Shown here: positions 4,044-57,799 of the stretch, piece by piece
Layout: each line of letters begins with the position of its first letter
Position numbering within the stretch: position 1 is the stretch's first letter
Assembly (NCBI GenBank): GCA_017541265.1
Contig: JAFXZK010000084.1
Coordinates: forward strand, 4,217-68,216
Source: Bacteroidaceae bacterium
GTDB lineage: Bacteria; Bacteroidota; Bacteroidia; Bacteroidales; Bacteroidaceae
Direction: 5' to 3'
DNA: 64,000 nt
Made by a program: the position numbers and the translations under genes
Notes under the pieces: model-generated
The model's input: the letters and a program-made list of their open reading frames with translations, nothing else
What the model was told of the DNA's origin: nothing
Databases searched by the model: none

Positions 4044-4044
4044 T

Positions 4045-8712: not shown

Positions 8713-8771
8713 TTGAAAATTGAAAGTTGAAAATTGAAAGTTGAAAGGCAAGTCAGGAGTAGTTTGTCAAC

Positions 8772-8904: not shown

Positions 8905-8979
8905 CAGTAAATAGTAAATCGTCAAATAGCGTAAATCCGCTAATAAATTATAAATTGTAAATTGTCAAATTGTAAATAG
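8905..8979 (+). repeat. (a)aatMgtaaat word array upstream of mlaE
   Basis: cagtaaatagtaaatcgtcaaatagcgtaaatccgc taataaattataaattgtaaattgtcaaattgtaaatag. Confidence 0.75.
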
Positions 8980-14961: not shown

Positions 14962-15090
14962 CCTGTATAAGGAGGACTGCAGTCCTCCGAAAGAAATTCT
15001 ATGGGAGGACTCCAGTACCACCGCGGTGGGACTGCAGTCCTCCCATTGAAGTACTGAAGTCCAACTGCGGTGGTACTGCCGTAGATTCGT
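14962..15090. repeat. nested-palindrome interspersed repeat, copy 1
   Basis: Contains the perfect 18-bp palindrome ggaggactgcagtcctcc (14970-14987), ggactgcagtcc again at 15028-15039, and the 12-bp palindrome ccaccgcggtgg. Homologous in inverted orientation to 51258-51380. Confidence 0.8.
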
Positions 15091-18866: not shown

Positions 18867-18885
18867 CACCCGCATAAATAAAAGG

Positions 18886-18911
18886 GAAGCCCCTCTTACC
18901 CCCGGTGGGGG
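18886..18911. repeat. GC-rich palindromic unit, intergenic copy in the tig leader
   Basis: aagcccctcttacccccggtggggg. Hairpin ccccc-ggt-ggggg. Confidence 0.5.
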
Positions 18912-18913
18912 AT

Positions 18914-21037: not shown

Positions 21038-22264
21038 ATGGTAAAGCGTAAGAACCGCTGCTCGTTCTGCGGACGCAGCGAGGACGAGGTGGCACTGCTC
21101 TTGAGTGGCTTGAATGGCTACATCTGCGACGAGTGCGTCCGGCAGGCAGAGAAGATAGTCAGCGAGAATATGGGCGGCGAGGTTCGCCTGAAGGCTGGCA
21201 GCGAGGGCTTTGACATGCGCGGGCTTCCAAAGCCTCACGACATCAAGGCTTTCCTCGACCAGTACGTCATCGGCCAGGACAGCGCCAAGCGTTATCTCTC
21301 TGTTGCCGTCTATAACCACTATAAGCGTCTGGCGCAGCCAGAGAACGACGTGGAGATAGAGAAGAGCAACATCATCATGGTCGGCCCCACTGGCACAGGC
21401 AAGACATTGCTGGCACGCACCATCGCCAAGCTGCTCAAGGTGCCGTTCACCATCGTGGATGCCACCATCTTCACCGAGGCAGGCTATGTGGGCGAGGACG
21501 TGGAGAGCATCCTGACGCGGCTGCTGCAGGTGGCTAACTTCGATGTGACCGCCACAGAGCGCGGCATCGTCTTCATCGACGAGATAGACAAGATAGCACG
21601 CAAGCAGGACAACCCCAGCATCACGCGCGACGTCAGCGGCGAAGGCGTGCAGCAGGGACTGCTCAAGCTGCTCGAAGGTTCGATTGTCAATGTGCCGCCA
21701 AAGGGCGGGCGCAAGCACCCCGACCAGGACTACATACATGTCGATACGCGCAACATCCTGTTCATCTGCGGCGGAGCCTTCGACGGCATCGAGCGCAAGA
21801 TAGCACAACGCCTGAACACCCACGTCGTCGGCTACGACAGCGTGCAGAACCAGCGGCGCATCGACACGAAGGAGCTGATGAAGTACATCGTGCCGCAAGA
21901 CCTGAAGAGCTTCGGACTCATTCCCGAAATCATAGGCCGTTTGCCCGTGCTGACCTACCTTAACCCCCTCGACCGCGACGCACTGCGCCGCATCCTGACC
22001 GAACCCAAGAACTCGCTCGTCAAGCAGCAGATAAAGCTCTTCGAAATGGATGGCATCAAGCTCACCTTCGAAGAGGATGCTCTGGACTACATCGTTGACA
22101 AGGCTGTCGAGTACAAACTTGGTGCACGCGGCTTGCGCTCAATTATGGAGGCCATCATGATAGAGGCGCAGTTCAATGCCCCGTCAGAGCAGGAAAAGAC
22201 ACTCACCATCACTCGCAAGTACGCCGAAGAGCAGATAAAGAAGAATGAGGAAATGAAGAAATGA
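21038..22264 (+). CDS. clpX: ATP-dependent Clp protease ATP-binding subunit ClpX
   Basis: N-terminal zinc-binding CSFCGR...CDEC, Walker A GPTGTGKT, Walker B VFIDEIDK. Confidence 0.95.
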
Positions 22265-22350
22265 GGAAATGAAAAGGGAAATAATACGCTTTTCTTTCTT
22301 TTTTCATTTTTATATTCTTTCATTCTTATATTCTTTCATTCTTTCATTTT
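22250..22350. repeat. inverted gaatgaaa / tttcattc word arrays downstream of clpX
   Basis: gaatgaggaaatgaagaaatgaggaaatgaaaaggg ... ttttttcatttttatattctttcattcttatattctttcattctttcattt. The first arm supplies the last clpX codons (KKNEEMKK). Confidence 0.7.
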
Positions 22351-24600: not shown

Positions 24601-24609
24601 GAAAAACGA

Positions 24610-24639
24610 AGCACGTTACGATTGTCATCATAACGTGCT
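24610..24639. terminator. hairpin between convergent recQ and kbl
   Basis: agcacgtta-cgattgtcatca-taacgtgct (9-bp perfect stem). On the minus strand it is followed by tcgttttt c. Confidence 0.5.
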
Positions 24640-24695
24640 ACGATTGCCATCATAACGTGTTGTGTTTGCTAACGCAGCACGTTATGTTTTATAAG

Positions 24696-25883: not shown

Positions 25884-25906
25884 AGTGTTAATGGTTATAG
25901 GTTATT

Positions 25907-25924
25907 GGTTATAGGTTATTGAAG
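25907..25924. repeat. left arm of a perfect 18-bp inverted repeat in the kbl/tdh divergent region
   Basis: ggttataggttattgaag is the exact reverse complement of 26026-26043. Embedded in a longer ataggtt word array (25889-25924). Confidence 0.85.
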
Positions 25925-25945
25925 CCTTTGGAATGATTTGTCATG

Positions 25946-25953
25946 CAAAATTA
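25946..25953 (-). promoter_or_regulatory. -7 box (taattttg on minus strand), kbl
   Basis: 62 nt upstream of the start at 25883. Confidence 0.5.
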
Positions 25954-25996
25954 CAAAAAAAACTTCATTCTTCGTTCTTCATTCTTCATTTTTTTG

Positions 25997-26004
25997 TAAC
26001 TTTG
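25997..26004 (+). promoter_or_regulatory. -7 box (taactttg), tdh
   Basis: 57 nt upstream of the ATG at 26062. Confidence 0.55.
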
Positions 26005-26025
26005 CATGTGCTAAAACTAAAAACG

Positions 26026-26043
26026 CTTCAATAACCTATAACC
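26026..26043. repeat. right arm of a perfect 18-bp inverted repeat in the kbl/tdh divergent region
   Basis: cttcaataacctataacc. The word array extends to about 26058. Lies 18 nt upstream of the tdh ATG. Confidence 0.85.
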
Positions 26044-26061
26044 TATAACCAATAACTATTC

Positions 26062-27066: not shown

Positions 27067-28377
27067 TCAGTTCACTTCTATCAGCACCTCGGAGAGGGTG
27101 GGGTGGATGTGGACGGTGTCGCGAAGCTGGCGAAGCGTGGCGCCGAGAGTGATGTAGGCGGTCACTTCCTGCACGATGTCGGCGGCATGTGCGCCGAAGA
27201 CATGCGCGCTGAGCAGTTTGCCTTCATCCAGCTCACAGCAGAGCTTCACCATGCCCTCCGTTTCGTTCATTGCCAAAGCCTTGCCGTTGGCACGGTAGAA
27301 GGACTTATGGCACTCGAAAGGTATGCCGGCCTCCTTGAGCTGGTCTTCCGTTGGGCCAACGCAAGCGGCTTCGGGTTCTGTGAAGATGGCGGCAGGCATG
27401 ACCTCAAAGCGTATCTTGTCCTCAATGCCGAGGATGCGGTTCACGACGTGTATGCCCTGCATCTCTGCAGCGTGGGCGAGCATCTGGCGGCCGTTGACGT
27501 CGCCAATGGCAAAGACCCCCTCTAACTCCCTCTCTATGGGGAGAACTTTGAAGTGCTCATCGACGGGGATGATGCCACCCTTGGCAAGTGCGATGCCTGC
27601 GGCTTCCAGGTTCAGACCCTCTGTGTTGGCCTTGCGGCCCGTTGCCATGAGGATGGCGTCGGCATCGACGGAAAGCTCCTTGCCCTTCTGGTCGAAGAGA
27701 ACGGAGAGACCCGACGAAGAAACGCCGGGCACAACGGCTTTCACGCCAGCACCCATGTAGAACGTGATGCCGCGCTTTTCGAGGAGCTTGCGCAGGCGCT
27801 TGGCAATATCGCTATCCACCATTGGCAGGCATTCCTTGAGGTACTCGATGACCGTCACCTCCGAGCCGAAGCGCTGGAACACACTCGCGAACTCCATGCC
27901 GATGACACCTGCACCGATGATGCAGAGCTTCTTCGGCAGTTCCTTGAGCGCGAGCAAGCCTGTCGAATCGACGACGCGCGGGTTGTCCACTCCTGCGATG
28001 GGCAGCATTTTGGGTGAGCTGCCTGTGGCAATGATGATGTTGGGGGCTGTGTAGGTCTCGTTTGTTGCGACTGAGTCGCAACAGACCGTACGGGCATCGA
28101 CAAAGGAGGCACGGCCACGCACAAGCGTGATGTTGGGATGCGAGAGCAATGTCTCGACACCGCCACGCAAAGCCTCCACCACTTGCGGCTGCCGCTCGAT
28201 GGCTTCAGCGAAAGTGGCGGAGTGGACGTATGTCTTCGTCGGTATGCAGCCCACGTTGAGGCATGTGCCGCCAACATGCGCGTCCTCGAAGATGACGACC
28301 TTGAGGCCATGCTTTGCAGCATGAACGGCTGCCTTGTAACCGCCAGGGCCTGCACCGATGATGATGAGATCAGTCAT
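27067..28377 (-). CDS. lpdA: dihydrolipoyl dehydrogenase (E3 / L-protein)
   Basis: IIGAGPGGY, redox disulfide GGTCLNVGCIPTK, C-terminal HIHPTLSE. The ORF-track N-terminal extension to 28467 is translated word-repeat DNA and is rejected. Confidence 0.9.
   Translation of the reverse strand: MTDLIIIGAGPGGYKAAVHAAKHGLKVVIFEDAHVGGTCLNVGCIPTKTYVHSATFAEAIERQPQVVEALRGGVETLLSHPNITLVRGRASFVDARTVCCDSVATNETYTAPNIIIATGSSPKMLPIAGVDNPRVVDSTGLLALKELPKKLCIIGAGVIGMEFASVFQRFGSEVTVIEYLKECLPMVDSDIAKRLRKLLEKRGITFYMGAGVKAVVPGVSSSGLSVLFDQKGKELSVDADAILMATGRKANTEGLNLEAAGIALAKGGIIPVDEHFKVLPIERELEGVFAIGDVNGRQMLAHAAEMQGIHVVNRILGIEDKIRFEVMPAAIFTEPEAACVGPTEDQLKEAGIPFECHKSFYRANGKALAMNETEGMVKLCCELDEGKLLSAHVFGAHAADIVQEVTAYITLGATLRQLRDTVHIHPTLSEVLIEVN
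27513..27543. repeat. GC-rich palindromic unit inside lpdA (in frame)
   Basis: agaccccctctaactccctctctatggggag is nearly identical to the reverse complement of the right arm of the 51072-51139 copy (agaccctctctaactctcccttaaagggg). Encodes PIERELEGV just before the AIGD motif. Confidence 0.55.
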
Positions 28378-28444
28378 AATAATGAAAGAATGAAATAATG
28401 AAAGAATGAAAGAATGAAGGAATGAAGGAATGAAGGAATGAAAG
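28378..28444. repeat. gaatgaaag word array (left arm flanking the four-helix-bundle gene)
   Basis: aataatgaaagaatgaaataatgaaagaatgaaagaatgaaggaatgaaggaatgaaggaatgaaag. Shares a perfect 22-nt inverted match (aatgaaagaatgaaagaatgaa) with 28854-28892. Confidence 0.8.
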
Positions 28445-28463
28445 TTTGACAGCCATGCTTCAA

Positions 28464-28829
28464 TCATCCATTCTTATCATTTCTCTTTGTGTTTTTTATT
28501 GTTGTTACTAATGTTCCTATTATCACGTTCAAATCATTCACGTTAGAATCAAATTGCTTGACACTAATGTTCTCTGAATCAAACAATAACTCGAGCCAGT
28601 ATTTAGTTTCCGTAGCTTCTTTAAGAGAGATGCTCAATTTATTGACAAAGTCTGCTCGGCTTTGAGCATTGATACTTTCCGCGATATTTGCACCTATACT
28701 TGTTCCGCTGCGGTAAACTTGTTTTGACATGACAAACTCCTTTTTCTCATTACATAGAAATGTATAGAGTTTTATCACTCTCAAAGCGAATTTCTTACTT
28801 AACTCATATAGTATATTGTCATGTGTCAT
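28464..28829 (-). CDS. four-helix-bundle protein (23S rRNA intervening-sequence protein family)
   Basis: SGTSIGANIAES...ISLKEATETKYWLELL pattern typical of this family. Visibly AT-rich. Flanked by inverted gaatgaaag arrays. Confidence 0.8.
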   Translation of the reverse strand: MTHDNILYELSKKFALRVIKLYTFLCNEKKEFVMSKQVYRSGTSIGANIAESINAQSRADFVNKLSISLKEATETKYWLELLFDSENISVKQFDSNVNDLNVIIGTLVTTIKNTKRNDKNG

Positions 28830-32046: not shown

Positions 32047-33126
32047 TTACTTTTTATAATGTTTGTCATAGAATTTTTTCTTTACCACTTTGCCCTCGAA
32101 GACCTTTTTGCGAATCTGTACGGAGAGCGGGGTGTCGAGTTTTGCGAACTCGGTCTTGACGAGAGCCATGCAGACGCTCTTATCGACGCTGAGGCAATGG
32201 TAGCCGGTCGTGACTTCGCCTACGACTTCGCCTGCCTCGTTGAGGACAGCATAGCCGTGACGGGGGATTGCCTTGTCGGCAAGTTCGATGCCCACGAGCT
32301 TCTGCGCTACGCCGTTGGCTTTCTGTTCTGCGAGAGCTTCCTTGCCGATGAACTCGGGCTTGTCGAGCTTGCAGAACATCGAGAGGCCAGCCATAACGGG
32401 CGAGATGTCGGCGCTGAGTTCGTCGCCATAAAGCGGCAGACCTACTTCGAAGCGGAGTGTATCGCGACAGCCAAGGCCGCAAGGCTTGCAGCGGCCGCTC
32501 TCGATGAGCTTGTCCCAAGCCTTCTGCGTGAACTCGTGCGAGCCGTAGATCTCGAAGCCGTCCTCGCCTGTATAACCTGTGCGGCTAATGATGATGTCGC
32601 CCACAACCTTCGCAGTGTAGAACTTCAGGTCGCGTCCGTCGATGCCAAGCACGTCGAGGACGACGGCTTCTGCTTCTGGGCCTTGCACGGCAAGCTGCCC
32701 GTAGTAGTCGCTCTGATGGTCGAGCTTGATGTCGAAACCGGCAGTATGCTCCTTCATCCAAGCCACATCCTTGTCGATGTTGGCGGCGTTGATGACGAGG
32801 AAGAAGTCATTCTCGCCCATCTTATAGACGAGGAGGTCATCCACCGTGCCGCCGTTGGGATAGAGCATCATGCCGTAGTAGATTTGTCCGACGGGTGCGC
32901 CGCTGACATCGTTCGTAAAGATGTGCTGGACGTAGCGCTCTGCATCGGGACCAGTGATGCGCACTTCGCCCATGTGGCTCACGTCGAACACGCCGCAGTG
33001 CTGGCGCACGGCGTTGTGCTCGTCGGTGATGTTCGTGTACTGGATGGGCATGATGAATCCGCCGAAGGGTGACATGAGTGCGCCCAATGCCACATGGCGG
33101 TCATAGAGACATGTTTTCTTTTCCAT
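32047..33126 (-). CDS. gcvT: glycine cleavage system aminomethyltransferase T
   Basis: Typical GcvT N-terminus LYDRHVALGALMSPFGGFIMPIQY...HNAVRQHCGVFDVSHMG. Confidence 0.95.
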   Translation of the reverse strand: MEKKTCLYDRHVALGALMSPFGGFIMPIQYTNITDEHNAVRQHCGVFDVSHMGEVRITGPDAERYVQHIFTNDVSGAPVGQIYYGMMLYPNGGTVDDLLVYKMGENDFFLVINAANIDKDVAWMKEHTAGFDIKLDHQSDYYGQLAVQGPEAEAVVLDVLGIDGRDLKFYTAKVVGDIIISRTGYTGEDGFEIYGSHEFTQKAWDKLIESGRCKPCGLGCRDTLRFEVGLPLYGDELSADISPVMAGLSMFCKLDKPEFIGKEALAEQKANGVAQKLVGIELADKAIPRHGYAVLNEAGEVVGEVTTGYHCLSVDKSVCMALVKTEFAKLDTPLSVQIRKKVFEGKVVKKKFYDKHYKK

Positions 33127-33892
33127 AGATAAATTCAGGTTTTAGGTATTCTTGTTCGATGGTTTCAATGTTTTTCACGTCCTCTTCTGTAAGTTGCAAA
33201 TCGTCGGAGCAAAGCCTTTTTATGGCAAAAGCCTTGAACTCCTCGATGGTGATGTCGGTGTGCTCCTTGAGGAGCGTGATGCGCTGGCGCACGCTTTCGA
33301 CGCCGTGCTTCGTGAGTTTCTGCCGGGGCGGCGTGATGGCATTCAGCATGTGCTGCATGTCGGTGTCGAAGAGCATTGTGCCGTGGACGATGCTGTAGCC
33401 GGGTTTGTGGTAGAAAGCGTTGCCCGAGACCTTCCGTCCGCCGATGAGGATGTCGTTGTGCTCCGTGGATGTTGCCTCCAGTCCCAGCTCTCGGAGCATC
33501 CCGCAGACCATGTCCATGTACTCCTTGAAAGTTGTCTGCACCTCGTCGGAGCGTGTGATGTAGCTCATCATCACGTTGTGGGTGTCGGCATAGACGCAGC
33601 CGCCGCCGCTCTTTCGCCTGTAGAACTGTATGCCGTGCTCACGGCAATAGTCCAGGTTCACCTCGTTCTCAATCACCTGGTTGCGCCCGAAGATGACCGT
33701 CGGCTCCACTTGCCAGAGGAAGAAAGCCCCCTCCCCGCTCCCCCTTTGGGGGAGTGCTTCATTCCCGCTGCCTCGCCGCTCAAGAGCACTCCCCCAAAGG
33801 GGGAGCGGGGAGGGGGCTACTGCCCATTCCTCCATCGCCAGGTAGAAGCTGAGCCGCCGCGTCTCGTCTGTGGGAAGTACCAAGTGTGTCAT
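33101..33892 (-). CDS. lipoate-protein ligase family protein, carrying an in-frame palindromic insertion
   Basis: LplA-type motifs FYLAMEEW, FLWQVEPTVIFGRNQ, RRKSGGGCVYAD, GRKVSGNA. Overlaps the gcvT start by 26 nt. First gene of the gcv operon. Confidence 0.8.
   Translation of the reverse strand: MTHLVLPTDETRRLSFYLAMEEWAVAPSPLPLWGSALERRGSGNEALPQRGSGEGAFFLWQVEPTVIFGRNQVIENEVNLDYCREHGIQFYRRKSGGGCVYADTHNVMMSYITRSDEVQTTFKEYMDMVCGMLRELGLEATSTEHNDILIGGRKVSGNAFYHKPGYSIVHGTMLFDTDMQHMLNAITPPRQKLTKHGVESVRQRITLLKEHTDITIEEFKAFAIKRLCSDDLQLTEEDVKNIETIEQEYLKPEFIYGKENMSL
33726..33817. repeat. GC-rich palindromic element (two inverted units) inside the lipoate-protein ligase gene, in frame
   Basis: Perfect 33-nt inverted arms: 33726-33758 gccccctccccgctccccctttgggggagtgct and 33785-33817 agcactcccccaaagggggagcggggagggggc, with a 26-nt spacer. 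Each arm contains its own hairpin. Confidence 0.85.
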
Positions 33893-33908: not shown

Positions 33909-34359
33909 CAAAGAAAAGTTGATATGTTGAAAAATAAAAAGGCTAAAAAGAATGCAGATTGATGATTTCATGTAAAAAAGCCCCATGCGGGCGATGCTCT
34001 TAAAGGGAAAAACGTCACATGGGGGCTAAAATACTCCCCGCAAGGGAAGAGTTAAATAGTTTTTGTTGGGGTAGGGTACAAAAGGAATATGATTATCCGC
34101 AATCTGCCTATGATTGTAAAATCTTTTCGCAATTGCGGCTCTTCTGACAGCGTTTTTCCTCTTGCGGGGCGTTTTGATACCCAAAGGGCAGGAAATGGGC
34201 TTAAATCGAATCGCCACTGACAATCAGACGGTTGCGAGGCGACATTGCGGAATGGTTTGTTAAAAAAGTATTGCAACTTAACGAGATAGTGTTAAACGAG
34301 ATAAAGTTTTGGGGCAAAATGGGCATGGATTGAAGGTGAAAAGAACGTGGGGTTTGGTT

Positions 34360-34401
34360 CATAAGAACGTGGACTTATGACCATAAGTCCACGTTCTTAT
34401 G
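34360..34401. repeat. perfect 20-bp inverted repeat (hairpin) downstream of ddh
   Basis: cataagaacgtggacttatg-ac-cataagtccacgttcttatg. Shares the words cataagaacg and cataagtcc with the cysK-downstream repeat. Confidence 0.85.
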
Positions 34402-34545
34402 AGAAACGAGGCATGCTTCATCTACCAAAACGCCGTTTAGTCCTTGCTTTTTATGTAAAGAATTTTGACTGACAGGCACCAGGCACAAAAAAGCCTTTCA
34501 ACGGATGGCGTTGAAAGGCTGCGAGGAAGTGAGCTTCCTCTTATG

Positions 34546-35531: not shown

Positions 35532-38500
35532 TTATCTGCCTTGTATGAGCTTTTTGCCGTTTTGGATGTAGATAGAGCCTGGCTTGAGGTCGGTGACGCG
35601 GCGGCCCATGAGGTCATAACATTTACTATTTGACAATTTACAATTTACAATTTCTTCCTCCACATGAGGTGCCTCAATGCCATCGATTATCTCGTCTGTC
35701 AGGTCGCCGACGATGGTGCCATAGTTTGCCCAGCTTGATGCCTGGTACTTCGAAAGGGCGCTGGCATAGACATGAATCGTGGGATTGCTGTTGAAGATGT
35801 ATGCCCCGAGGCTCGGCGGCGTGAGGGCTTTGACATAGACGTCCTTGACGGGCGAGTTGTAGAACACGCCCTGGCTCATGCTCGACACCTTCTTGCCGAT
35901 AATAACAGTTGAGAGCGTGCTGCTACCGCCAAAGGCTTCGAGACCGATTGAGGTGACAAGATCGGGAATCTCTATCATCTTGAGGCCAGAGAAGCGGAAA
36001 GCTCTGTCCTCTATCTTGGTCGTCTTTAGGGGCAGGCGCATCGAAACGAGTTTCTTGAAACTGTCGAAGGCGTAGGCTCCCACAGTATTGAGCGAGGTTG
36101 TGTAACTCTGATAGTAGGCCGAGCCGCCAGACACGATTTTGGCCTGCGAGAGGTCTATTGACTGGAGATTGCCCTCGCTAAGGAGCTGGCGCAGGTACTT
36201 GATGTCCTTGCCGTTGATGTTGCCGCTGATGGTGGCCTTGATTGCCTTGTCAGAGAGAGAGTCTGCCAAGACACCGGCCTTAGGCATGACTACATACTCC
36301 GCGCCGCTGCCAGCTCTGATGATTTTGTGCAGGGAACCGTCGGCATCAAGAGAGTACATCGAATATTGAACATTGAACATTGAAGACGGGATGCAGAAGC
36401 TCTTGGCATTGGCGGCGAAGAGGAGATTGTCGAACGCATCGAGCGCCAAGAAGCCCAGTCCGCCTTCGCCCTCCAGGGCATAGAGCGAGTCGGCTTGCAG
36501 ATAAGTATAATCCGAAGGCGCACATGCACCGGGCAGATAGTCGGTGAACTGCCCGACGTCGCCGCACTGGCCCACCTTATCCGACTCGCGCCGCTTCTGC
36601 CCTGCCGTCGTGATGAAGCCTGTCGTGAGCACATAGTCGGCACGGTCCTCGATGAAGAGTATCTCGCGGTTCTTTGTCGGGTACTTGGCAATCTCCGCCA
36701 ACGTCTTGTCTATGTCGGACTGAGAGACCGTCATGTAGTGTGCGCCGTAGTCGTTGACCAGAAAGTTATTGAGCGGCTCGAAGAAGCCCCAGACCCTAAA
36801 GAAGTCCGTGAGGTCCTCCTGCACGATTTCGCACACCTTGCGGACAAACTTCAGGCAGCCCGTGTTGGAGCTGTAGAGGGTCAGCGGGTCTTCGCGTAGC
36901 TTCTTGAAGAGCGTCGGGTAGAACGACGTGTTCCGCTGTGCCAAGTGATAGTATAGGTAGAGCTGCCAGTACATGCGCATCTGGCTGTCGAGCGGACGGG
37001 TGAAGAACGGTTCGCGCCGTGCATGTTCGTCCATGATGGTGGAAAGAGGCGAGCCGCTGGACGTGATGAGTCCCGTGTGGAAGCGGATGTAGTTGGAGAA
37101 GAGGTTGTTCGAGACCTCCGTACCGCCTTCCACGGTGATAGCGCCCTGATTGTTGTGTCCGCACTCATGGGCAGCGCACCAGTCGTCGAAGTCTGCCGTG
37201 CGGCTCACGTCGAAGGAGCTTTGGACGCAGCCTGCCGTGTTGTACATTGTGCGGAAGGCAGCCGAGTTGGCAAAGCCGCCGTCGGTCGATTCACCTTCCA
37301 CCGCGAAGTTCGGGTTGTTATAGTATTTTGGGAAGAAGGCTTCGCCGCCCGAAATGTAGAACGGCGCACCAGCCCGCTGACCCGAAGCCACAGACTCGCA
37401 GATGCCCATCAGCTCCTTCTCCCAGACGGTCAGGCTGTCGAACCAGCAAATGCTCTTCTCGATGGTCTTCGGCCAGACACTTCTGTATGTGCTTGTCTTG
37501 AAGTTGAAGAGGGACTGCCCGCCCTTGACTGTGAAGCGTTCATGAGTGGCTGCGGCAAGGATGGCCTTGTAGTCGCTGTCGCTCTGCCGCTTCACGTCGT
37601 AGTAGCCATTCACTACGCCGCCCTCGATGTGAATCTTCATGTCGGGCCACTCGTCGAGGGTCTTCTTCATCGTTTTCGTGTCTGCTATATATAATATGTA
37701 GAAGAGGGCAGCCTCTGTACCATCGACGATGTTCAGTCCCTTCTTGAGCATCTTGCCCTGCTTGGCACTGGTGACGAGGTCGTTGCCCTGACAGCCAGCG
37801 ATATAGAGCGTGGCGCCAGAGGGTATGTCGCTATCCACAAAGACATAGAGCGGGTCGTAGCCCGACGTGTAGATGCCTGTTGGGTTGCCCATGAAGGAGC
37901 CGCCCGTGCTGCGTAGCTTGCTGTTCCAGTAGCCCGCATCGCTGTATGCACTATACGAATGGATGCGGAAATCCTTCTCATAGGGCCTCCAGTCCTCGTT
38001 CTTCAGTTTCAGGGCAATGTCCCTCATAAACGAGGGCATACCCGCCTCGGTGAGGGATTGCGTCAGCTCCTCATCGCTCATGGCCTTGTACTCGGCCTTC
38101 AGCTCGGTGCAGGCCACGTCCTCGAAGAAGGTGCCTGCCAACGTGTTGACGATAGCGCTGGAGTCGGCCTCTTCCTCAGGATAGTAGCGTTCCAGGTTTC
38201 CTTGAATGGTGCCGTACTGCTTCCAAGTTGATGCCTTGTAGTCGTTGAGGACACTGGAATAGACAAGAATCTTCGGGCTTGCCGTGAAGATATAGGCGTC
38301 AAGCGAAGGCGGAGTCTTGGGCTTGACGTATGCCGTCGTGATGGAAGACGAGTTGTAGAAAACGGCCTGCTCGAGCTTCGACACCCTCTTGCCAATGACG
38401 ATGGTCTTGAGGGCGTTGCAGTCGGCAAAGCAAGCGCCGCCTAATCTGGTAACGGCATCGGGGACTTCCACCTTGCTGATGCCCGTCTTGGAAAAGGCGT

Positions 38501-38879
38501 ATCTGCCGATGGTGGTTATTGTCGTGGGCAAGACAACTGTTTTGAGCTTCGAGCAGTCGGCAAACATGTAATCGCCCAACACATCGTCCTGCGTCGTGTA
38601 GCTCTCGTTGTAAGCCACGCCGCCGCTAACGATACGGACGTCCTCCAAGTTGAGCGAAGTTACAGCTCCTGCGTTTATCTTCTCGCGGAGGAACTTGACA
38701 TCGGTGCCGTTGATTTTGCCCGTCAGTTTGAGCGTCTTGGAAGTCATCTCAAAGATTGAGGACAAAGTGCCAGCTGTTGCCACATGAATGGTGTCGGCTG
38801 CCCAGCCGTTCGACGAAACGAGACAGGCGATGCCTGCCAGCACCGCGCCGAGTATTCTCTTGATTCCTATACCTTGCAT
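35532..38879 (-). CDS. secreted LRR / M60-like metallopeptidase / LRR protein with sorting-type C-terminal tail (paralog 1, 1115 aa)
   Basis: Signal peptide. BspA/LRR_5-type repeats at both ends. HECGH at 37155-37169 with downstream Glu (TEVSNNLFSNY). C-terminal CYDLMGRRVTDLKPGSIYIQNGKK. Confidence 0.8.
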   Translation of the reverse strand: MQGIGIKRILGAVLAGIACLVSSNGWAADTIHVATAGTLSSIFEMTSKTLKLTGKINGTDVKFLREKINAGAVTSLNLEDVRIVSGGVAYNESYTTQDDVLGDYMFADCSKLKTVVLPTTITTIGRYAFSKTGISKVEVPDAVTRLGGACFADCNALKTIVIGKRVSKLEQAVFYNSSSITTAYVKPKTPPSLDAYIFTASPKILVYSSVLNDYKASTWKQYGTIQGNLERYYPEEEADSSAIVNTLAGTFFEDVACTELKAEYKAMSDEELTQSLTEAGMPSFMRDIALKLKNEDWRPYEKDFRIHSYSAYSDAGYWNSKLRSTGGSFMGNPTGIYTSGYDPLYVFVDSDIPSGATLYIAGCQGNDLVTSAKQGKMLKKGLNIVDGTEAALFYILYIADTKTMKKTLDEWPDMKIHIEGGVVNGYYDVKRQSDSDYKAILAAATHERFTVKGGQSLFNFKTSTYRSVWPKTIEKSICWFDSLTVWEKELMGICESVASGQRAGAPFYISGGEAFFPKYYNNPNFAVEGESTDGGFANSAAFRTMYNTAGCVQSSFDVSRTADFDDWCAAHECGHNNQGAITVEGGTEVSNNLFSNYIRFHTGLITSSGSPLSTIMDEHARREPFFTRPLDSQMRMYWQLYLYYHLAQRNTSFYPTLFKKLREDPLTLYSSNTGCLKFVRKVCEIVQEDLTDFFRVWGFFEPLNNFLVNDYGAHYMTVSQSDIDKTLAEIAKYPTKNREILFIEDRADYVLTTGFITTAGQKRRESDKVGQCGDVGQFTDYLPGACAPSDYTYLQADSLYALEGEGGLGFLALDAFDNLLFAANAKSFCIPSSMFNVQYSMYSLDADGSLHKIIRAGSGAEYVVMPKAGVLADSLSDKAIKATISGNINGKDIKYLRQLLSEGNLQSIDLSQAKIVSGGSAYYQSYTTSLNTVGAYAFDSFKKLVSMRLPLKTTKIEDRAFRFSGLKMIEIPDLVTSIGLEAFGGSSTLSTVIIGKKVSSMSQGVFYNSPVKDVYVKALTPPSLGAYIFNSNPTIHVYASALSKYQASSWANYGTIVGDLTDEIIDGIEAPHVEEEIVNCKLSNSKCYDLMGRRVTDLKPGSIYIQNGKKLIQGR
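35618..35664 (-). repeat. aaattgtaaat-family module embedded in frame in M60-like paralog 1
   Basis: aacatttactatttgacaatttacaatttacaatttcttcctccaca is identical over 47 nt to 42467-42513. Encodes VEEEIVNCKLSNSKC. Confidence 0.85.
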
Positions 38880-38913
38880 ATCTGTGTCTTTAATGTACTT
38901 TTCAAACTACCTA

Positions 38914-39011
38914 CACCTAATTGATAAATTAGGCACGCCTAATTCGCAAACTAGATACGTCTAATTGGAAAACTAGGCACGTCTAGTTAGCCAACTAACC
39001 GTGCCTAGTTT
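38914..39011. repeat. taggcacgcctaatt hairpin-word array, locus 2 (between M60-like paralogs 2 and 1)
   Basis: cacctaattgataaattaggcacgcctaattcgcaaactagatacgtctaattggaaaactaggcacgtctagttagccaactaaccgtgcctagtt. Same words as 8772-8853. Confidence 0.75.
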
Positions 39012-39026
39012 CAAGGGGCGACACTT

Positions 39027-42000
39027 TTACTTGCCGAACATAAACTTCTTGCCGCCACGAATGTAAATGGTGCCCGGCTGGAGGACTGTAACCTTGCGGC
39101 CCATCAGGTCGTAGCAGCTGTCCGAGTACTCTGAGTTCTCTGAATAATCCGAGTCTTCTGAAATCTCCTCGATGCCGTCAATCATCTCGTCTGTCAGGTC
39201 GCCCACGATGGTGCCGAACCTTTCCCAGTTTGCGGCCTTGTACTTCTCGACTGCACTGGCATAGACGTGTATGGTGCGGTTCTTGCCAGCAAAGAGATAG
39301 TCGCTGACACCGTTCAGGGTTGGAGGTGTGAGGGGCTTGACGTATGCGTCCTTGAGAGCGGAGCTGCCGTAGAAGATACCCTGCTCCATCGACTTAACGC
39401 CCTTGCCGATAATCACAGCCTCCAGCGAGTTGCAGTAGGCAAAGGCATCGCCGCCAATAGAGGTCACCTTGTCGGGAATCTCAATGAACTTGATGCTTGA
39501 ACCCGAGAAGGCAGCGGCCCCAATGCTGGTAAGCGTGAAAGGCAACTTTATTGAGACAAGCTTCTTGATATTCTGGAAAGCGTTGGCAGGGAAGGAGGTG
39601 AGTCGAGCCTGTTCGAGGTCTATGGACTGAAGGTTCTCTTCGTTGACAAGTTGCTTCATGTATTTGAGGTCTGTCGTGCTAATCGGTCCGCTTACAATCA
39701 ACTTGATGCATTGGTCGTTCTCCAGCTTCGTCTTGAGAGTTCCTGCTCTGGAAAGCTCGACATATTCTGTGCCGCTGCCTGCCCTGGTGACTTCGTGGAG
39801 TGAGCCATCGGCATCGTAGGAGTAGATTTTGAAGTCTCTGCCTACGCTTGTCGGGACGCAAAGGTTCTTCGAGTTGGAGGCATACTTGAGATTGTTTTCA
39901 GCATCGAGCATCAGAATGCCCAGACCGCCTGTACCCTCTAATGCATAGAGGGAGTCGGACTGGAAATAGACATATTCCGAAGGCTCACAGGCTCCGGGGA
40001 GATAGTCGGTGAACTGACCAAGCTCGCCGTATTGACCCACCTTGTCCGAGCCGCGACGCTTCTTGCCTGCTGCCTGGAGGAAGCCTGTCGAGAGCACATA
40101 GTCGGCACGGTCCTCGACAAAGATAATCTCGCGGTTCTTTTTCTCGTATTGTGAAATCTTGGACTTCGTGCTGTTGATGGTGGCCTTCGTCACAGCGATA
40201 GGATGCGAGCCGTAATCATCAATCTTTGTTCCGGCCTTTATCGGTTCAAAGAAACCCCAGATGTCGAAGAAGTCGGTGAGGTCTTCTTGTGCAATCTCGC
40301 AGACCTTGCGGACGAACTTCAGGCCGCCGTTGGTGTTGTTCGAGGAGTTGTAGAGCGACAACGGGTCTTTACGCAGTGCCTTGAACAGCTCTGGGTAGAA
40401 GGACGTGTTCTTCTGCCCCAAGTGATAATAAAGGTAGAGGTTCCAGTAGAAGCGCAAGCGGCTGTTCACGTCCCTGAAGTAGAAAGGTTCATGGCGTGCA
40501 TACTCGTTCATCACCTGGGCAAGCGACGAGCCGTTCGATGTGTTGAGGCCGCCAAGATAGCAGACGAGGTTCGAGAAGACGTTGTTCGATGCCTCGGTGC
40601 AGCCTTCCAGATTAATGGCCCTCTGGTTGTTGTGGCCGCATTCATGGGCTGCGCACCAGTCATCCATCTCGGAGTTCGTGGCATTGAGGCAGTTTCTGAT
40701 GCAGTCAATGCCGTTGTAGCTGGTCCTGTAAGCTGTAGAGTTTGCATAGCCGGCATCCTCTGGCTCGCCTTCGATGGCGAAGTTCGGGTTGTTGTAGTAG
40801 ATGGGATAGATAGCTTCGCCGCCCGTCAGGTACCAGGGATAGCCTGCCTTCTTGCCTGTAGCCACCTCTTCGGTCATGCCCATCAGGTTCTTCTCCCAAA
40901 CAGCCACGCTGTCGAACCAGCAGATGCTCTTATTCATTATAGTGGCCGTCTTGAACACTTCCTTAAAGGATGCGGTCTTGAGATGGATGAGGGAATGCCC
41001 GCCTCTGACAGTAAAGCGATTGAGTTTGGCTGCTTTTAGAATATTCAGGTAATCGGTGGAGGCGTGGAAGTTGACATCATAGTAGCCGTTCACTACGCCG
41101 CCCTCGACATGAATCTTTATCTCAGGCCATTGGTCGAGGGTCTTCCTCATTAACTTCGTGTCGGCAGTATAGACGATGTAGTAGAGGGCATTCTTCGTAC
41201 CTTCAACGACATTGAGGCCCTTCACGAGCTTCTTGCCTGTCGTGGCATTGGTGATGAGTTGGTTATCTACGCATCCGGCGAAGTAGAGCGTAGCGTCGCT
41301 GGGCACGTTCTCGTCAACGAAGACATAAATCTCGTCGCCGTCATTTGCTGCATAGATGCCTGTCGGGTTGCCCATGTAGGAGCCGCCGCTGGCCATCATC
41401 TTGTCGTTCCAGTAGTTGGCATCGCTGTATGCCTTGTAGCTGTGGATGCGGAAGTCCTGCTCATAGGCTGCCCATGAGTTGTTCTTCACCTTGAGGGCTG
41501 TGGCAATCATCCATTCGGGCATTCCCACTTCGGTCAGGGCAGCCGTCAGTTCCTCGTCGCTCATGGCTTGATATTCGGGTTTCAGCTGGGTGCAGGCAGC
41601 ATCCTCGAAGTAGTTGCCGCACAGGGTTTGTGCGATAACATTGGGATCTGCCTCCATTGGATAGTAGTTCTCAAGGCCACCCACGATGGTGCCCAAGGTC
41701 TTCCAATCCGTTGCCTTATAGTCTGTCAGAGCAGGCGTATAGACATAGATTTTAGGATTTGACGAGAAGAGATAAGCTGGAACGCTGGGAGGTGTCATGG
41801 GCTTCACATAAACCGTCTTGACATCAGACTGGTAGAACACGCCCTGGTTCATCTGTTTTACTTTCTTGCCTATGACCACCTTCTCTAAGGAGCTACAGTA
41901 TGCGAAGGCGTCACCACCGAGCTTCGTCACGCTGCCTGGAATGTCGATTTCCTTGAGGCCTGTCCTCGAGAAGGCGTTGGTCTGAATGGCTGTCACCGTC

Positions 42001-42356
42001 GTGGGCAGCACCATCGCCTGAAGCTTCGAGCACTCGTAGAACATCTGTTCGCCTATGATGTCGTTCGCCGTCGTGTAGGTTCCGACGTAGGCTTCACCGC
42101 CGCTCACGATGCTCACACCCGACCAGTCGAGGCTCGTAACGGTTCCTGCCTCGACGAGCGAGCGGATGTACTTGATGTCGGTGCCGTTAATGAAGCCCGT
42201 CACCTTGAGCTCAGTGTCGGTACTCGTCAAGAGAGAGGACAGCGTGCCGGCTGTCTCGACATGGATTTCCGTTACGGCAAAGAGGTTTGCCGAAACGAGA
42301 CAAGTCATAGCTGCCAATGACAACCTGAAGAGTTTTGTGTAGTTTTTCTTGTCCAT
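39027..42356 (-). CDS. secreted LRR / M60-like metallopeptidase / LRR protein (paralog 2, 1109 aa)
   Basis: Same architecture as paralog 1. HECGH at 40632-40646. C-terminal CYDLMGRKVTVLQPGTIYIRGGKK. Confidence 0.8.
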   Translation of the reverse strand: MDKKNYTKLFRLSLAAMTCLVSANLFAVTEIHVETAGTLSSLLTSTDTELKVTGFINGTDIKYIRSLVEAGTVTSLDWSGVSIVSGGEAYVGTYTTANDIIGEQMFYECSKLQAMVLPTTVTAIQTNAFSRTGLKEIDIPGSVTKLGGDAFAYCSSLEKVVIGKKVKQMNQGVFYQSDVKTVYVKPMTPPSVPAYLFSSNPKIYVYTPALTDYKATDWKTLGTIVGGLENYYPMEADPNVIAQTLCGNYFEDAACTQLKPEYQAMSDEELTAALTEVGMPEWMIATALKVKNNSWAAYEQDFRIHSYKAYSDANYWNDKMMASGGSYMGNPTGIYAANDGDEIYVFVDENVPSDATLYFAGCVDNQLITNATTGKKLVKGLNVVEGTKNALYYIVYTADTKLMRKTLDQWPEIKIHVEGGVVNGYYDVNFHASTDYLNILKAAKLNRFTVRGGHSLIHLKTASFKEVFKTATIMNKSICWFDSVAVWEKNLMGMTEEVATGKKAGYPWYLTGGEAIYPIYYNNPNFAIEGEPEDAGYANSTAYRTSYNGIDCIRNCLNATNSEMDDWCAAHECGHNNQRAINLEGCTEASNNVFSNLVCYLGGLNTSNGSSLAQVMNEYARHEPFYFRDVNSRLRFYWNLYLYYHLGQKNTSFYPELFKALRKDPLSLYNSSNNTNGGLKFVRKVCEIAQEDLTDFFDIWGFFEPIKAGTKIDDYGSHPIAVTKATINSTKSKISQYEKKNREIIFVEDRADYVLSTGFLQAAGKKRRGSDKVGQYGELGQFTDYLPGACEPSEYVYFQSDSLYALEGTGGLGILMLDAENNLKYASNSKNLCVPTSVGRDFKIYSYDADGSLHEVTRAGSGTEYVELSRAGTLKTKLENDQCIKLIVSGPISTTDLKYMKQLVNEENLQSIDLEQARLTSFPANAFQNIKKLVSIKLPFTLTSIGAAAFSGSSIKFIEIPDKVTSIGGDAFAYCNSLEAVIIGKGVKSMEQGIFYGSSALKDAYVKPLTPPTLNGVSDYLFAGKNRTIHVYASAVEKYKAANWERFGTIVGDLTDEMIDGIEEISEDSDYSENSEYSDSCYDLMGRKVTVLQPGTIYIRGGKKFMFGK

Positions 42357-42380
42357 AGTTTATGTTAGTTTTTAGTTTAG

Positions 42381-45300
42381 TTATTGCTTTATCATAATCT
42401 TCTTGCCGTTTCGGATGTAGATGTTACCGGGCTTCAAGGCTGTAACCCTGCGCCCCAGGAGATCGTAACATTTACTATTTGACAATTTACAATTTACAAT
42501 TTCTTCCTCCACACGGGGTGCCTCTATGCCATCAATTATCTCGTCTGTCAGGTCGCCGACGATTGTGCCATAGCTTGCCCAGTCCGATGCCTGATACCTG
42601 GAGAGGGCGCTGGCATAGACGTGAATTGTGGGGTTGCTGCTGAAAAGGTAGTTGCCAACGCTCGGCGGAGTGAGTGGTGTGACGTAAACGTCCTTTACCT
42701 TAGAGCTATAGAATGCGCCTTTCGAGATTGTCTTTGCACCCTTGCCAATAAGCACGGTAGCCAGATTGTCACAATATGCGAAAGCATCTTCGCCTATGGC
42801 CGTCACTTTATCGGGTATCTCTATCATGCTCAGGCTGGTTCTGGAGAATGCATTCGAGCCTATCTTTGTGATAGTGAGTGGCAACTTCATATATGCGAGT
42901 TTCCGTAAGCCATAAAAGGCGTAATCGCCCATGCTGTTGATACTTGTGCTGTATGAAGTGCCGTTGTTTGTATAATAGGCTCCGCCGCCTGCTACGACTC
43001 TGGCGTCCGAGAGGTTGATGCTCTGGAGGTTTTCTTCGTTGATGAGTTGACGCATGTACTTGATGTCCTTGCCATTGATTTTCCCACTGACGGTAAGTTT
43101 GATGGCATTGGCCCGGTCGTCCGTGAGTTCTGTCTGAAGCGTGCCTGCTGTAGCGAGTGTGACGCTCTCTTCGCCATTGCCTGCCCTGACGACTTCGTGA
43201 AGTGAGCCATCGGCATCAACGCTATAGATAGTGAAGTCGCGGTCAACGCTTTTGGGTATGACTATGCATTTGGAATTGGCTGCATACTTGATGTTGTTGT
43301 CTGCATCGAGCATGAGGAAACCGACACCTCCGGTGCCTACCATCGCGTAGAGCGAGTCTGATCGGTAATAAACATACGACGAGGGCTCACATGCTCCGGG
43401 GAGATAACTGGTGAACTGTCCGACGTCGCCCCAGTGGTTGTCATCCTGTCCTAATCGCTTCTGCCTTGCTGTCGTGACGAAACTTGTGGTCGGCAGAGTC
43501 TCCACACGATCCTCGATGAAGATAATCTCGCGGTTCTTCACGGGATACTTGGCTATGGTGGCCTTTGTGCTTTTGATGTCGGCCTGCCTCGTCGTGACGT
43601 AATGGTCGCCGTAGTCCTCGACGTAGAGGTTGGAGGTAGGTTCGAAGAAGCCATAGATGGTGAAGAAGTCCGTGAGGTCTTCCTGAGCTGTCTCGCACAC
43701 CTTGCGGACGAATTTCAGGCCAGAGGTGTTATTGTTGATGTTGGTGCCCTGCGACTTCAACCTGTCTGCACGCAGAGCCTTGAACAGCTCGGGAAAGAAG
43801 GAGGTGTTCTTCTGTGCCTGATGATAGTAGAGGTAGAGGGAGAAGAACAGGCGCAGACAGCTGTTGTTGACATTGCGGCTGTAGAAGGGCACGCGGTTCG
43901 CAAACTCCTGCATGGTAGTGCTCAAAGGGTTGCCCGAAGTTATCCTGTGCCCAACATGGAACCGGCAATAGTTGGAGAAGAGGTCGTTAGTGCCTTCGGT
44001 GAAGCCTACCAGCATGATGGGGAACTGGAGCTGATGCCCAAACTCATGTGCCGTGCCATTCTCGTCATAATTCGACACGTATGGGTTGAGGAAAGTCTTG
44101 CTTGCGTCGAGGGAGATGTGTATGCCGTACTCGGTGGAATGTGCGACAGAACCTGGCGAGTTGTTATCCACATAAGTGGGATTGTTGAAGTAGCCCGGAT
44201 AGAAGGCATCGCCACCTGAGAGATAGAAAGGAGCGCCGGCTTTCTCTCCGTTAACCACAGCTTCGGTCATACCGGAAAGGTCCTTTTCCCATACCGAAAG
44301 GCTGTCGAGACATGCAACTGCCTTGGCGATTCTGCTCGGGTAGGTTTGCTTGAGGACTGACGTCCTGATGTTCATAACGGAGTGCTTGCCCTTGCAGACG
44401 AATGTGGAGTTGGCGGCAGCGTTCAGAAGCTTCTTGTAGTCGGTGTCGGTATGGCGGGAAGCGTCGAAGTAGCCGTCCACCTTGCCGCCCTCAATGTGTA
44501 TCTTTATCTCCGGCCACTCTTCCAGCCTTTTGGTCATCGTTTTTGTGTCGGCAGTATAGAGGATGTAGTAAAATTTGTCTGCGTCACCATCAACGATGTT
44601 GAGGCCTTTCTTGAGCTTCTGCCCTGTCTTGCCAGAAGTGAACATCTGGTCAACGCCAGAGCCTGCGATGTAGAGTGTCGCGTCTTCGGGCACATCCTGG
44701 TCAACAAAGACATAGAGCTGGTCTGTATATGACTGGACATAGATGCCCGTCGGGTTACCCATATAGGAAGCGCAACGTACCCAGAGCTTCTCGTTCCAGT
44801 AATTCGCATCGCTATAAGCTTTGTACGAGTGGATGCGGAACTCCTGCTCGTAGGCTGCCCAAGAGTTGTTCTTTATCTTGAGGGCAATGGCTGTCATCTG
44901 TTCCGGCAAACCTGCTTCGGTCATAGCAACCGTCAGTTCCTCGTCATTCATTGCCTGATATTCGGACTTCAACTGTGTACAGGCGGCATCTTCGAAGAAG
45001 TTCTCGCACAATTCGTTCAGCAGGTCATCCTCATCTGGCTCCATCGGATAGTAGTTCGCCAGCGTGCCGGAGAGCGTGCCATAATTGTTCCAGCCCAGTT
45101 CCTTGTAGTCAGCCAAAGCTTCCTTATAGACATAAATCCTCGGGCTTGTCGAGAAGAGATAGGATGGCGGGCTGGGAGGCGTGATGGGCTTGACGTATGC
45201 GTTCTGAACGGAAGAAGCATAGAAAGAACCCTTGCTCAACTGGTTCACCTTCTTGCCGATGATGACAGTTTTCAGCGAGCCACAATAAGCGAAAGCATCT

Positions 45301-51257: not shown

Positions 51258-51380
51258 CTACAGTTTGCCGTCAGTACCACCATGGGAGGACTGCAGTTTT
51301 TCCGCGGTAGGACTCCAGTCCTCCCACGGTGGGACTGCAGTCCTGCAATAGAGAATTTTTAGGAGGACTGAGTTCCTGCC
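51258..51380. repeat. nested-palindrome interspersed repeat, copy 2
   Basis: cagtaccaccatgggaggactgcagt...ccgcggtaggactccagtcctccc...gggactgcagtcc...tagagaatttttaggaggact aligns with the reverse complement of copy 1. Confidence 0.8.
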
Positions 51381-57714: not shown

Positions 57715-57780
57715 TAAGTCCCTGTACTTGTCGTCATAAGTCCCTGTACTTATTGCCATAAGTCCCTGTACTTATCGCCA
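57715..57780 (+). repeat. 3 x 22-bp tandem repeat downstream of cysK
   Basis: taagtccctgtacttgtcgtca / taagtccctgtacttattgcca / taagtccctgtacttatcgcca, followed by a partial unit taagaacggggactt. Confidence 0.85.
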
Positions 57781-57799
57781 TAAGAACGGGGACTTTTTT
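57760..57799 (+). terminator. intrinsic terminator of cysK built from the last tandem-repeat unit
   Basis: aagtccctgt...acggggactt (10 bp including one G-U), followed by tttt. Confidence 0.6.

Follow-up and report, generated by a model that had tools for sequence, protein, structure and literature searches.

The 64,000-nucleotide (nt) stretch of DNA analysed here (positions 4,217 to 68,216 of contig JAFXZK010000084.1, assembly GCA_017541265.1, from a Bacteroidaceae bacterium; hereafter the window) raises the question of what kind of element the GC-rich palindrome is that lies in frame within the lipoate-protein ligase gene lplA, and how it came to be there. An initial, sequence-only reading had named seven places with copies of one palindromic unit and compared these to Rickettsia palindromic elements (RPE). 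Related units are indeed present at all seven. Two further ones, at 10562-10608 on the minus strand and, in degenerate form, at 61665-61700, bring the total to about 11 units distributed over nine places (Table 1). The evidence supports the view that these units behave like RPE and that the unit itself, beyond being a plain palindrome, is an intrastrand triplex motif of the type of BoxC/PIT/TMECO, the potential intrastrand triplex element of Escherichia coli (Holder et al. 2015, NAR 43:10126, PMC4666352). The copies probably constitute a dispersed family of the BoxC/PIT/TM class which is copied between loci and persists in frame within genes, and which may enter by repair-templated patching.

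When the window copies are aligned, each unit shows a C/T-rich tail leading into a short C-rich/G-rich hairpin, with conserved AGAC...GTCT ends (the element ends being AGAC, AGCC or GGCC). Read on one strand, a pyrimidine block A is followed by a linker of 3-4 nt (TAA, AAC, AAA or CCG), a mirror block B, a loop of 3-9 nt and a purine complement C, the general scheme CCCCCTC-linker-CTCCCCC-loop-GGGGGAG thus being a pyrimidine mirror repeat joined to a hairpin. Units are approximately 30-37 nt in length and stand singly or as inverted pairs, such dimers measuring 60-94 nt. The tail was recognised as the mirror image of the 5′ stem arm when the metagenome matches described below were read. Its covariation with the stem was examined in the window and its 20 closest loci (L001-L020) using hairpins located without reference to the tail (pyrimidine/purine stem of at least 7 nt). 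A mirror of the hairpin's own stem, with at most one mismatch and 1-5 nt upstream, accompanies 62% of the 61 hairpins, compared to 2.4% (maximum 8.2%) after shuffling of the upstream 25 nt, 32% (maximum 43%) after permutation of stems between units and 28% when a direct instead of a mirror copy was sought. The third block therefore covaries with the stem, and the architecture is predicted to be triplex-competent. Block A would be a fitting parallel (Hoogsteen) third strand for the purine arm, and the G/T-rich block of the opposite strand would be the antiparallel third strand of a purine-motif triplex. Inverted pairs can form long cruciforms.

Six perfect pyrimidine/purine hairpins with a stem of at least 6 nt occur in the window, whereas 100 dinucleotide shuffles gave 0.55 on average (maximum 3), and four of the six carry the mirror tail (mean 0.03, maximum 1 in the same shuffles). 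The mirror block of the lplA copy is free of mismatches (0/7). As single-stranded DNA this copy is predicted to fold at -51.2 kcal/mol (z = -9.0), a value reached by none of 200 dinucleotide shuffles. Scanned at gathering thresholds, the entire window gave no match to an Rfam family. Searches with fixed-length IUPAC consensus patterns failed owing to indels of 1-3 nt between the blocks, and a gapped pattern worked. An nhmmer profile built from 11 window units proved too narrow, giving 11 matches in 1.37 Mb of related loci and missing most units of the structure-based scan. For this reason an initial inference of absence beyond the closest clade was abandoned.

Table 1. Palindromic units, their host genes and AT-rich tandem repeats, by position in the window.
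Position	Strand	Feature	Context and details
33101-33892	-	lipoate-protein ligase gene lplA	263 aa; Pfam LplA-B_cat 1.3e-52
33725-33818		inverted dimer of two identical units	inside lplA; 34-nt arms, 100% complementary
33725-33758	+	left unit of lplA dimer	A 33727-33733 CCCCCTC, linker CCCG, B 33738-33744 CTCCCCC, loop TTT, C 33748-33754 GGGGGAG
33759-33784		spacer of lplA dimer	26 nt
33785-33818	-	right unit of lplA dimer	
27511-27547	+	single unit, stem partly decayed	inside dihydrolipoyl dehydrogenase gene (lpd) 27067-28467 (-)
47234-47296		dimer-like copy	inside 708-aa conserved hypothetical gene 45850-47976 (+); left side is a tail, AGACCCTCCCCTAA
47261-47296	-	good unit of the 708-aa gene copy	CCCTCTCC-CAA-CCTCTCCC-TTGTA-GGGAGAGG
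51070-51141		inverted dimer	5′ end of outer-membrane beta-barrel/CarboxypepD_reg gene 48219-51185 (-)
10476-10512	+	single unit	C-terminal tail of MlaF-like ABC ATPase gene 9731-10528 (+); encodes SLSQPLQRRGE
10562-10608	-	weaker unit	29-residue N-terminal extension of lptB (10525-11382, +); encodes VPPSCEGRVQDGGGL; nhmmer E = 0.07
3978-4043	+	unit 3978-4014 plus degenerate partner	5′ leader of der/engA (4090-5400)
18884-18913	+	short unit, weak	5′ leader of trigger factor gene tig (18955-20319); E = 0.38
61665-61700	+	degenerate unit	CCCTCTC-AGA-CTCCTCC-gag-GGGGAGAG; 3′ end of open reading frame 61261-61743; E = 0.2
4044-4080, 5404-5517, 8711-8747, 8944-8977, 22240-22348, 28381-28444		AT-rich repeats	
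35621-35653, 42470-42502, 59928-59962, 61737-61771, 63035-63133		AT-rich repeats	

With respect to the lplA copy, the arms had been described as a perfect inverted repeat of 33 nt; the repeat is perfect and each arm is one nucleotide longer. The claim that the copy adds residues to the protein stands in so far as these residues are absent from orthologs, but the insertion is not a clean one, as the element, 94 nt long, replaces the native loop and lengthens the gene by no more than 66 nt (+22 aa). The element encodes residues ~25-56 (APSPLPLWGSALERRGSGNEALPQRGSGEGA), leaving 33 residues between MEEW and FFLWQ rather than 11. Predicted peptides spanning insert junctions are, for example, ...EEWAVAPSPLPLWGSALER and FKVLPIERELEGVFAIGDVNGR. 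Element-free orthologs are 241 aa long with 73-82% identity and read MEEYAAR.LN.GDDLFFLWQ. In an AlphaFold2 model of the window protein (mean predicted local distance difference test score, pLDDT, 81.5) the insert lies between helix 14-25 and strand 56-60, and residues 28-53 have a pLDDT <50 and no secondary structure. For LplA, the expectation of a surface loop thus agrees with a low-confidence loop in the model.

Other orthologs possess different sequences at this same LplA site. L002 has an inverted dimer belonging to a different subfamily, P0102 an insert rich in AT, and L005 and P0064 a two-tail remnant; in others the site is occupied by a single unit (LPIEGEVGRGS) or by longer composites. 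In P0043 the left arm of the window's element is read in another frame, which indicates that the DNA persists and the peptide does not. The perfect arms are kept in orthologs down to about 81-86% identity. In the roe-deer colon genome L005 (10058-10117), lplA keeps two element tails (GCCTCCCAAAAATGAGATTTAGAGGAGGC) together with an in-frame TGA, which could represent a pseudogene, a sequencing error or a recoding event.

Replacement of a native loop is not confined to lplA, four copies having this feature (those in lplA, lpd, the 708-aa protein gene and the signal-peptide end of the outer-membrane protein), and native loop codons are lost at all four of these ortholog-compared sites. The lpd unit encodes VLPIERELEGVF immediately N-terminal to the AIGDVNG motif, within a variable stretch between VDEHF and (Y/F)AIGDVN that appears as F(E/Q)T(T/S)V(K/P)GIYAIGD in orthologs lacking an insert. 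A single unit occupies this site in the window, an inverted dimer in L001, and other units in L008, L009, L010, L013 and L020; an AT-rich insert is found in L015 and AT-rich tandem repeats in L003 and L018. Two further insertion sites exist in the Lpd of some relatives. In the 708-aa protein, the ancestral loop YLAEELG-KDKKEAAT-YRKQ has become 27 residues in the window, where copy 47234-47296 encodes SRPSPNGICSSPYKGEVGRGSGGSS, and other cassettes occupy it in other orthologs. The signal-peptide end of the outer-membrane protein is QTLSNSPLKGEDTLPLREGQGGSF in the window versus ATTLIQAQQKQAM in most orthologs, and orthologs at the element site read ...LLLLLATTLIQAQQKQAMLLNIRGTV. Comparison of filled and empty orthologs at the lplA and lpd sites revealed neither target-site duplications nor clean insertion boundaries. 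Conservation of the inserted residues in distant orthologs, which would have spoken against an insertion, was not seen; orthologs are free of the insert, carry unrelated inserts or have the same DNA in another frame.

Of the remaining copies, two are situated in the tails of proteins and two in 5′ leaders. The unit at 10476-10512, assigned by the sequence-only reading to the body of an LptB-like gene, in fact lies within the last 17 codons of the MlaF-like gene, 16 nt before its stop codon, and the family profile stops near residue 237 of 265. The LptB profile begins at residue 30 of the lptB open reading frame, so that the unit at 10562-10608 would be in a leader if the true start is further downstream. 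The der/engA leader copy had been listed as a single unit; it is one good unit with a degenerate partner. It is situated just 3′ of a Bacteroidota-type TAnnTTTG promoter box (seen by eye) and is followed by AAATTGTC tandem repeats. The tig leader unit is also 3′ of a TAnnTTTG box and has TAAATNG tandem repeats behind it, and TAAATAG repeats come after the unit at 61665-61700.

The frames of the genic copies do stay open, as first proposed, and do so at all loci examined with the exception of L005. This is weak evidence, since the units are nearly free of stop codons (2-6 of the six frames are open, mean 4.5) and selection would in any case remove copies that disrupt the frame of an essential gene. 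A single fixed reading frame for genic copies was considered and rejected, as most frames are open and the frame used varies; units lie in both orientations relative to the gene. Within the clade, defined as rumen Bacteroidaceae/Prevotellaceae genomes with an LplA at least 65% identical, relatives being sampled as 20-kb fragments, 38 of 48 strict units (79%) are in long open frames, against 79% for random segments. Given the open frames, the inserts are probably present in the proteins as disordered stretches rich in Pro, Gly, Ser, Leu and Glu.

The insertion sites are hot spots with very fast cassette turnover. L201, which was assembled independently, shares 97.8% identity with the window across 22 kb, but 75 nt at 47234-47308 are replaced in it, with sharp borders, by a different unit and then an AT-rich repeat, making this one of the three most divergent spots of the alignment. 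The element at 51070-51141 is identical in L201. In this single genome pair, then, one of two element sites has been fully replaced and the other is unchanged.

The AT-rich tandem repeats of the window have a period of 7-8 nt and are present in almost every intergenic leader, some as inverted pairs, the types being AAATTGTC, AAGAATGA, AGTTGAA, AATGAAAG x8, ATTTACA, TAAATAG and AATTCAT. Such a repeat often comes immediately after a GC-rich unit. The same repeat types also occur in frame at the loops used by GC-rich units, as in the L003, L015 and L018 lpd genes and P0102 LplA mentioned above and in the 708-aa protein orthologs P0151 and P0214. The lpd open reading frame itself starts 30 codons upstream of the conserved MTDLIIIGAG, and its extension (…HSFIPSFLHSFILSLFHSFII) is the AATGAAAG x8 leader repeat read in frame (28377-28467); the real start is therefore probably the internal Met.

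Identical units of 32-34 nt, loops and linkers included, were found at four positions in L013 and at two in L008, and the unit in the 708-aa gene of L201 is the same as the left unit in the lpd gene of L001, these being different genes in different genomes. Identity at unrelated positions shows that the family has been copied between loci, and it is to this extent, and no further, that the earlier suggestion of mobility is borne out. Further copies are also plentiful elsewhere. The 61 hairpins of the covariation analysis come from 388 kb of the window and its closest relatives, or one per 6.4 kb, while more distant Prevotella-group loci (n=60) have one per 117 kb (nine hairpins, six with the tail). 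Four of these six tailed hairpins belong to the cultured Xylanibacter ruminicola KHT3, in which two copies are in frame in lpd; their presence in an isolate excludes an assembly artefact.

The notion of a family restricted to this Bacteroidota lineage does not hold, the unit type being widespread in metagenomes and viral contigs. A metagenome scan with the gapped pattern gave matches in at least 120 contigs with a GC content of 0.28-0.68. Among the matches listed, 43 of 129 are in long open frames, and in-frame units include those in LeuRS-, MiaB- and RarA-like genes (identified from their translations), encoding VSPTGGDLEGA or PSKSPPVGE. The pattern is likewise present in about 100 IMG/VR contigs (L203-L302), where 96% of matches are full hairpins and 42 of 117 are of a subfamily with GCC...ACTT flanks. 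One viral contig of 61 kb has at least six copies, and IMGVR_UViG_3300030047_000019 is an example of these contigs. Phages could be carriers of the units, and host DNA inside IMG/VR contigs is another possibility.

Some observations from these metagenome contigs deserve mention. A LeuRS-like open reading frame of 1173 aa (L188, 10858-14377) has three units in frame, and the translation of an extra segment beside one of them resembles a DUF559/Vsr-like endonuclease domain. The subfamily GCCCCCTCTAAATCTCCCCcggtaGGGGAGACTTT is nearly invariant among the listed contigs, which have GC contents of 0.34-0.59 and come from many environments (L086, L102, L103, L105, L112, L137, L144, L146, L147, L168, L171, L180, L181, L188, L197 and others). 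Such invariance is unusual for a selfish repeat.

Other repeats and genes were noted in the window. Intergenic arrays with a 22-nt period and internal palindromes lie at 8760-8852 and 38903-38997, at 14971-15078 and 51272-51349, and at 24604-24686, 34341-34402 and 57715-57795; two unit families (AACTAGGCACGCCTAATTGGCA and CCACGGTAGGACTGCAGTCCTC) are each found at two distant loci. An intergenic imperfect inverted repeat at 25890-26060 has 72-nt arms that are 81% complementary, a 27-nt spacer and 7-mers of the GGTTATA-/CTTCATT-type. The minus strand at 35532-45737 carries three paralogous genes in tandem, each encoding about 1110 aa with Peptidase_M60 and LRR_5 domains. The outer-membrane beta-barrel protein, whose gene 3′ end spans 48219-48360, terminates in a Gly/Arg-rich tail of ~45 residues, GRFGGRGGGRGRGEEGRGEGGRGEDRSPRGGGRDGGGFGGGPRGGRF.

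As to how such units might persist and move, blocks B and C would pair as a hairpin, and A or its G/T-rich complement would supply the third strand of an intramolecular triplex. Units would persist where a gene tolerates ~10-30 extra unstructured residues, that is in surface loops, signal-peptide ends and protein termini, and also in 5′ leaders. Being structure-prone, the DNA may destabilise its own site, cassettes being deleted, trimmed or swapped for other units or AT-rich repeats, and hypervariable hot spots would arise at a few loops. The variability of the sites is observed; that DNA structure causes it is a suggestion based on the E. coli precedent. Entry, the least certain step, would occur through repair- or recombination-templated patching from other copies, which appears most likely and a dedicated transposase less so, given that native codons are replaced, target-site duplications are absent, whole cassettes are swapped and AT-rich intergenic repeats are found at the same loops. 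A wider proposal, that across Bacteroidota and their phages BoxC-like repeats are not kept out of coding DNA, colonise permissive protein loops about as often as random placement predicts and there drive a rapid exchange of cassettes by a transposase-free, structure-triggered and repair-templated diversification in frame, is put forward only tentatively and is at present doubtful.

The best surviving alternative sees in the units miniature transposable elements of a MITE-, REPIN- or RPE-like kind. A transposase encoded elsewhere in the genome, for example a single-strand enzyme of IS200/IS605 or RAYT type recognising the hairpin, would mobilise them in trans, and the in-frame copies would be what survives of random insertion. 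We regard this as unlikely, and a trans-acting single-strand transposase is still a serious rival. Transposition would account for identical units at unrelated loci, with the viral contigs as possible vehicles, but no transposase adjoins any copy examined, and no link between BoxC and mobile elements was found by Holder et al. (PMC4666352). The organisation as singles and inverted dimers resembles that of REP/REPIN sequences, though the GTAG/CGTC tag of REP superfamilies is absent. Single-strand transposases leave no target-site duplication, as is the case here, but the native loop codons are replaced instead of flanking the insert. Conserved AGAC...GTCT ends would also suit such an enzyme; an activity specific for hairpins leaves unexplained, however, why different cassettes, AT-rich tandem repeats included, are found at exactly the same sites.

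A further alternative, quite improbable in our judgement, is that the units are kept because they are useful, either as mRNA or DNA structures tuning expression (transcript-stabilising 5′ stem-loops or pause sites) or as selected flexible linkers. Two copies do lie at the extreme 5′ end of leaders just after promoter boxes, but E. coli PIT/BoxC repeats show no promoter or terminator activity (PMC4666352). Moreover, the peptides are not conserved, the frame differs between P0043 and the window, both orientations are used, and insert-free orthologs are common and represent the ancestral state. Retention of the perfect lplA arms in orthologs and the near invariance of subfamily GCCCCCTCTAAATCTCCCCcggtaGGGGAGACTT among the listed contigs (GC content 0.34-0.59) are the points that a functional explanation would accommodate. 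That there is no family at all, merely unrelated low-complexity C/T- and G/A-rich stretches, slippage products or metagenome assembly errors, can be set aside as scarcely credible, for although units of such small size and simple composition, poor scores for the weakest copies (18884, 10562, 61665) and a comparison set made up mostly of metagenome-assembled genomes would fit it, the idea is contradicted by the shuffle tests of window hairpins and mirror block, by 32-34-mers identical through loops and linkers at different loci and in different assemblies, by the copies in isolate KHT3 and by recurrence of the 51070-51141 element in L201.

A number of points weigh against the favoured explanation of a BoxC-class family spreading by templated patching. 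The triplex is here a prediction from sequence, the folding calculation having covered Watson-Crick pairs and hence the hairpin/cruciform part. The TMECO triplex itself was formed by an isolated strand (circular dichroism and nuclear magnetic resonance) and was undetected in duplex DNA or in vivo (PMC4666352). The exact TMECO consensus has no match in the window, although the same pattern does match L202, the control locus from E. coli; shared ancestry with BoxC is only one possibility, and a triplex-competent design may instead have arisen by convergence. That the inserts are translated is deduced from open frames, and the proportion of units within reading frames may not hold genome-wide because the sampled loci all surround the lplA-gcvT-lpd cluster. 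The lplA mRNA would bear a perfect stem of 34 bp, presumably at a cost, and neutrality is therefore doubtful. Finally, the templated route of entry is conjectural, and the AGAC/GTCT ends, which resemble bases of the empty site, could equally be the target of a transposase.

To our knowledge BoxC/PIT repeats, known for 30 years and described as strictly intergenic, have no established function or means of spread. Finding their design in frame in housekeeping genes (lplA, lpd and the gcvT region, with LeuRS-like genes in metagenomes) provides filled, empty and swapped natural alleles from which insertion, deletion and replacement junctions can be read, so that the mechanism becomes testable. These alleles amount to natural experiments on how long-mysterious repeats move and destabilise DNA. 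Peptide-adding repeats of the Rickettsia type are thereby extended to abundant free-living gut and rumen bacteria. There is also a warning for annotation of Prevotella-like metagenome-assembled genomes, as such loops inflate protein divergence, create spurious opposite-strand open reading frames and confuse ortholog alignment and strain typing.

Among known repeat systems the closest in architecture is BoxC/PIT/TMECO, earlier work on which (Bergler 1992; Hoyne et al. 2000) is cited in Holder et al. (PMC4666352). The TMECO consensus is 5′-CCCTCNCCC N3-6 GGGNGAGGG N3 GGGNGAGGG-3′, the second loop being TTA in type A and CCG in type B, and its 23 copies in strain MG1655, as singles or inverted pairs, are all intergenic (23/23; PMC4666352). 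Both systems share the three-block order of C-rich stem, loop of 3-6 nt, G-rich stem, 3-nt loop and mirror G-rich block. On the G-rich strand, the second loops of the units here are TTA, TTG, TTT or CGG, with TTA as the linker at 51106-51141 and CGG/CCG in the lplA copy. Both also occur as singles or inverted pairs in either orientation, in many highly similar copies. Variation of the loci between close strains may be a further resemblance, seen here in one genome pair; in E. coli, TM loci were rearranged more than control loci among strains, and structure-driven turnover was proposed (PMC4666352). The window units differ in their stems of 7-9 nt with other sequences, in a host that belongs to the Bacteroidota and not to the Proteobacteria or Cyanobacteria, and in their placement, the strict units being largely within open reading frames as opposed to intergenic only in MG1655. 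Near-matches to the TMECO consensus were found only in the relatives L001 and L002. Among 5426 complete E. coli genomes, 5409 have matches to the L001 unit, the median being 14 unannotated places. This unit also shares 19 consecutive bases (CCTCACCCTAACCCTCTCC) with the E. coli copy upstream of uxuR (CCCCTCACCC-TAA-CCCTCTCCCC-aaa-GGGGCGAGGGG). As the window units fail the exact consensus, they would be of the same kind by architecture and not members of the E. coli sequence family.

The REP/BIME/REPIN sequences resemble the units in being short GC-rich hairpins, single or in inverted doublets, with many dispersed copies. An account of the REP superfamilies gives a GTAG or CGTC tag at the hairpin end (PMC3733652); this tag is absent from the window unit ends, GTAG being found at one arm of the lplA copy only. 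The window family further differs from REP/REPIN-RAYT systems in not being extragenic and in its extra mirror block, and no RAYT gene was identified in the 64-kb window or the 20-kb relative fragments. MITEs are a further parallel, as small non-autonomous repeats able to become parts of proteins, and those of Coxiella burnetii are reported to insert in frame (PMC5896051). They possess insertion sequence-derived terminal inverted repeats and target-site duplications, neither of which is seen here. The open-access literature yielded no in-frame palindromic or triplex element in Bacteroidota, in Prevotella or in coding sequence, which is weak evidence of absence.

In behaviour, the units come nearest to the RPE, reportedly described by Ogata and co-workers in 2000 as in-frame palindromic repeats in Rickettsia genes. 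RPE are ~100-150 bp in length, AT-richer, confined to Rickettsia-type lineages and not known as triplex motifs, and the window units, which are shorter and GC-rich, differ from that description and also in their recurrent hot spots with cassette turnover. The analogy drawn by the sequence-only reading nevertheless holds: in both cases a palindromic repeat is found in frame in housekeeping genes, is absent from orthologs, occurs in non-coding DNA as well and adds a peptide at a permissive, surface-exposed place, as predicted here for LplA.

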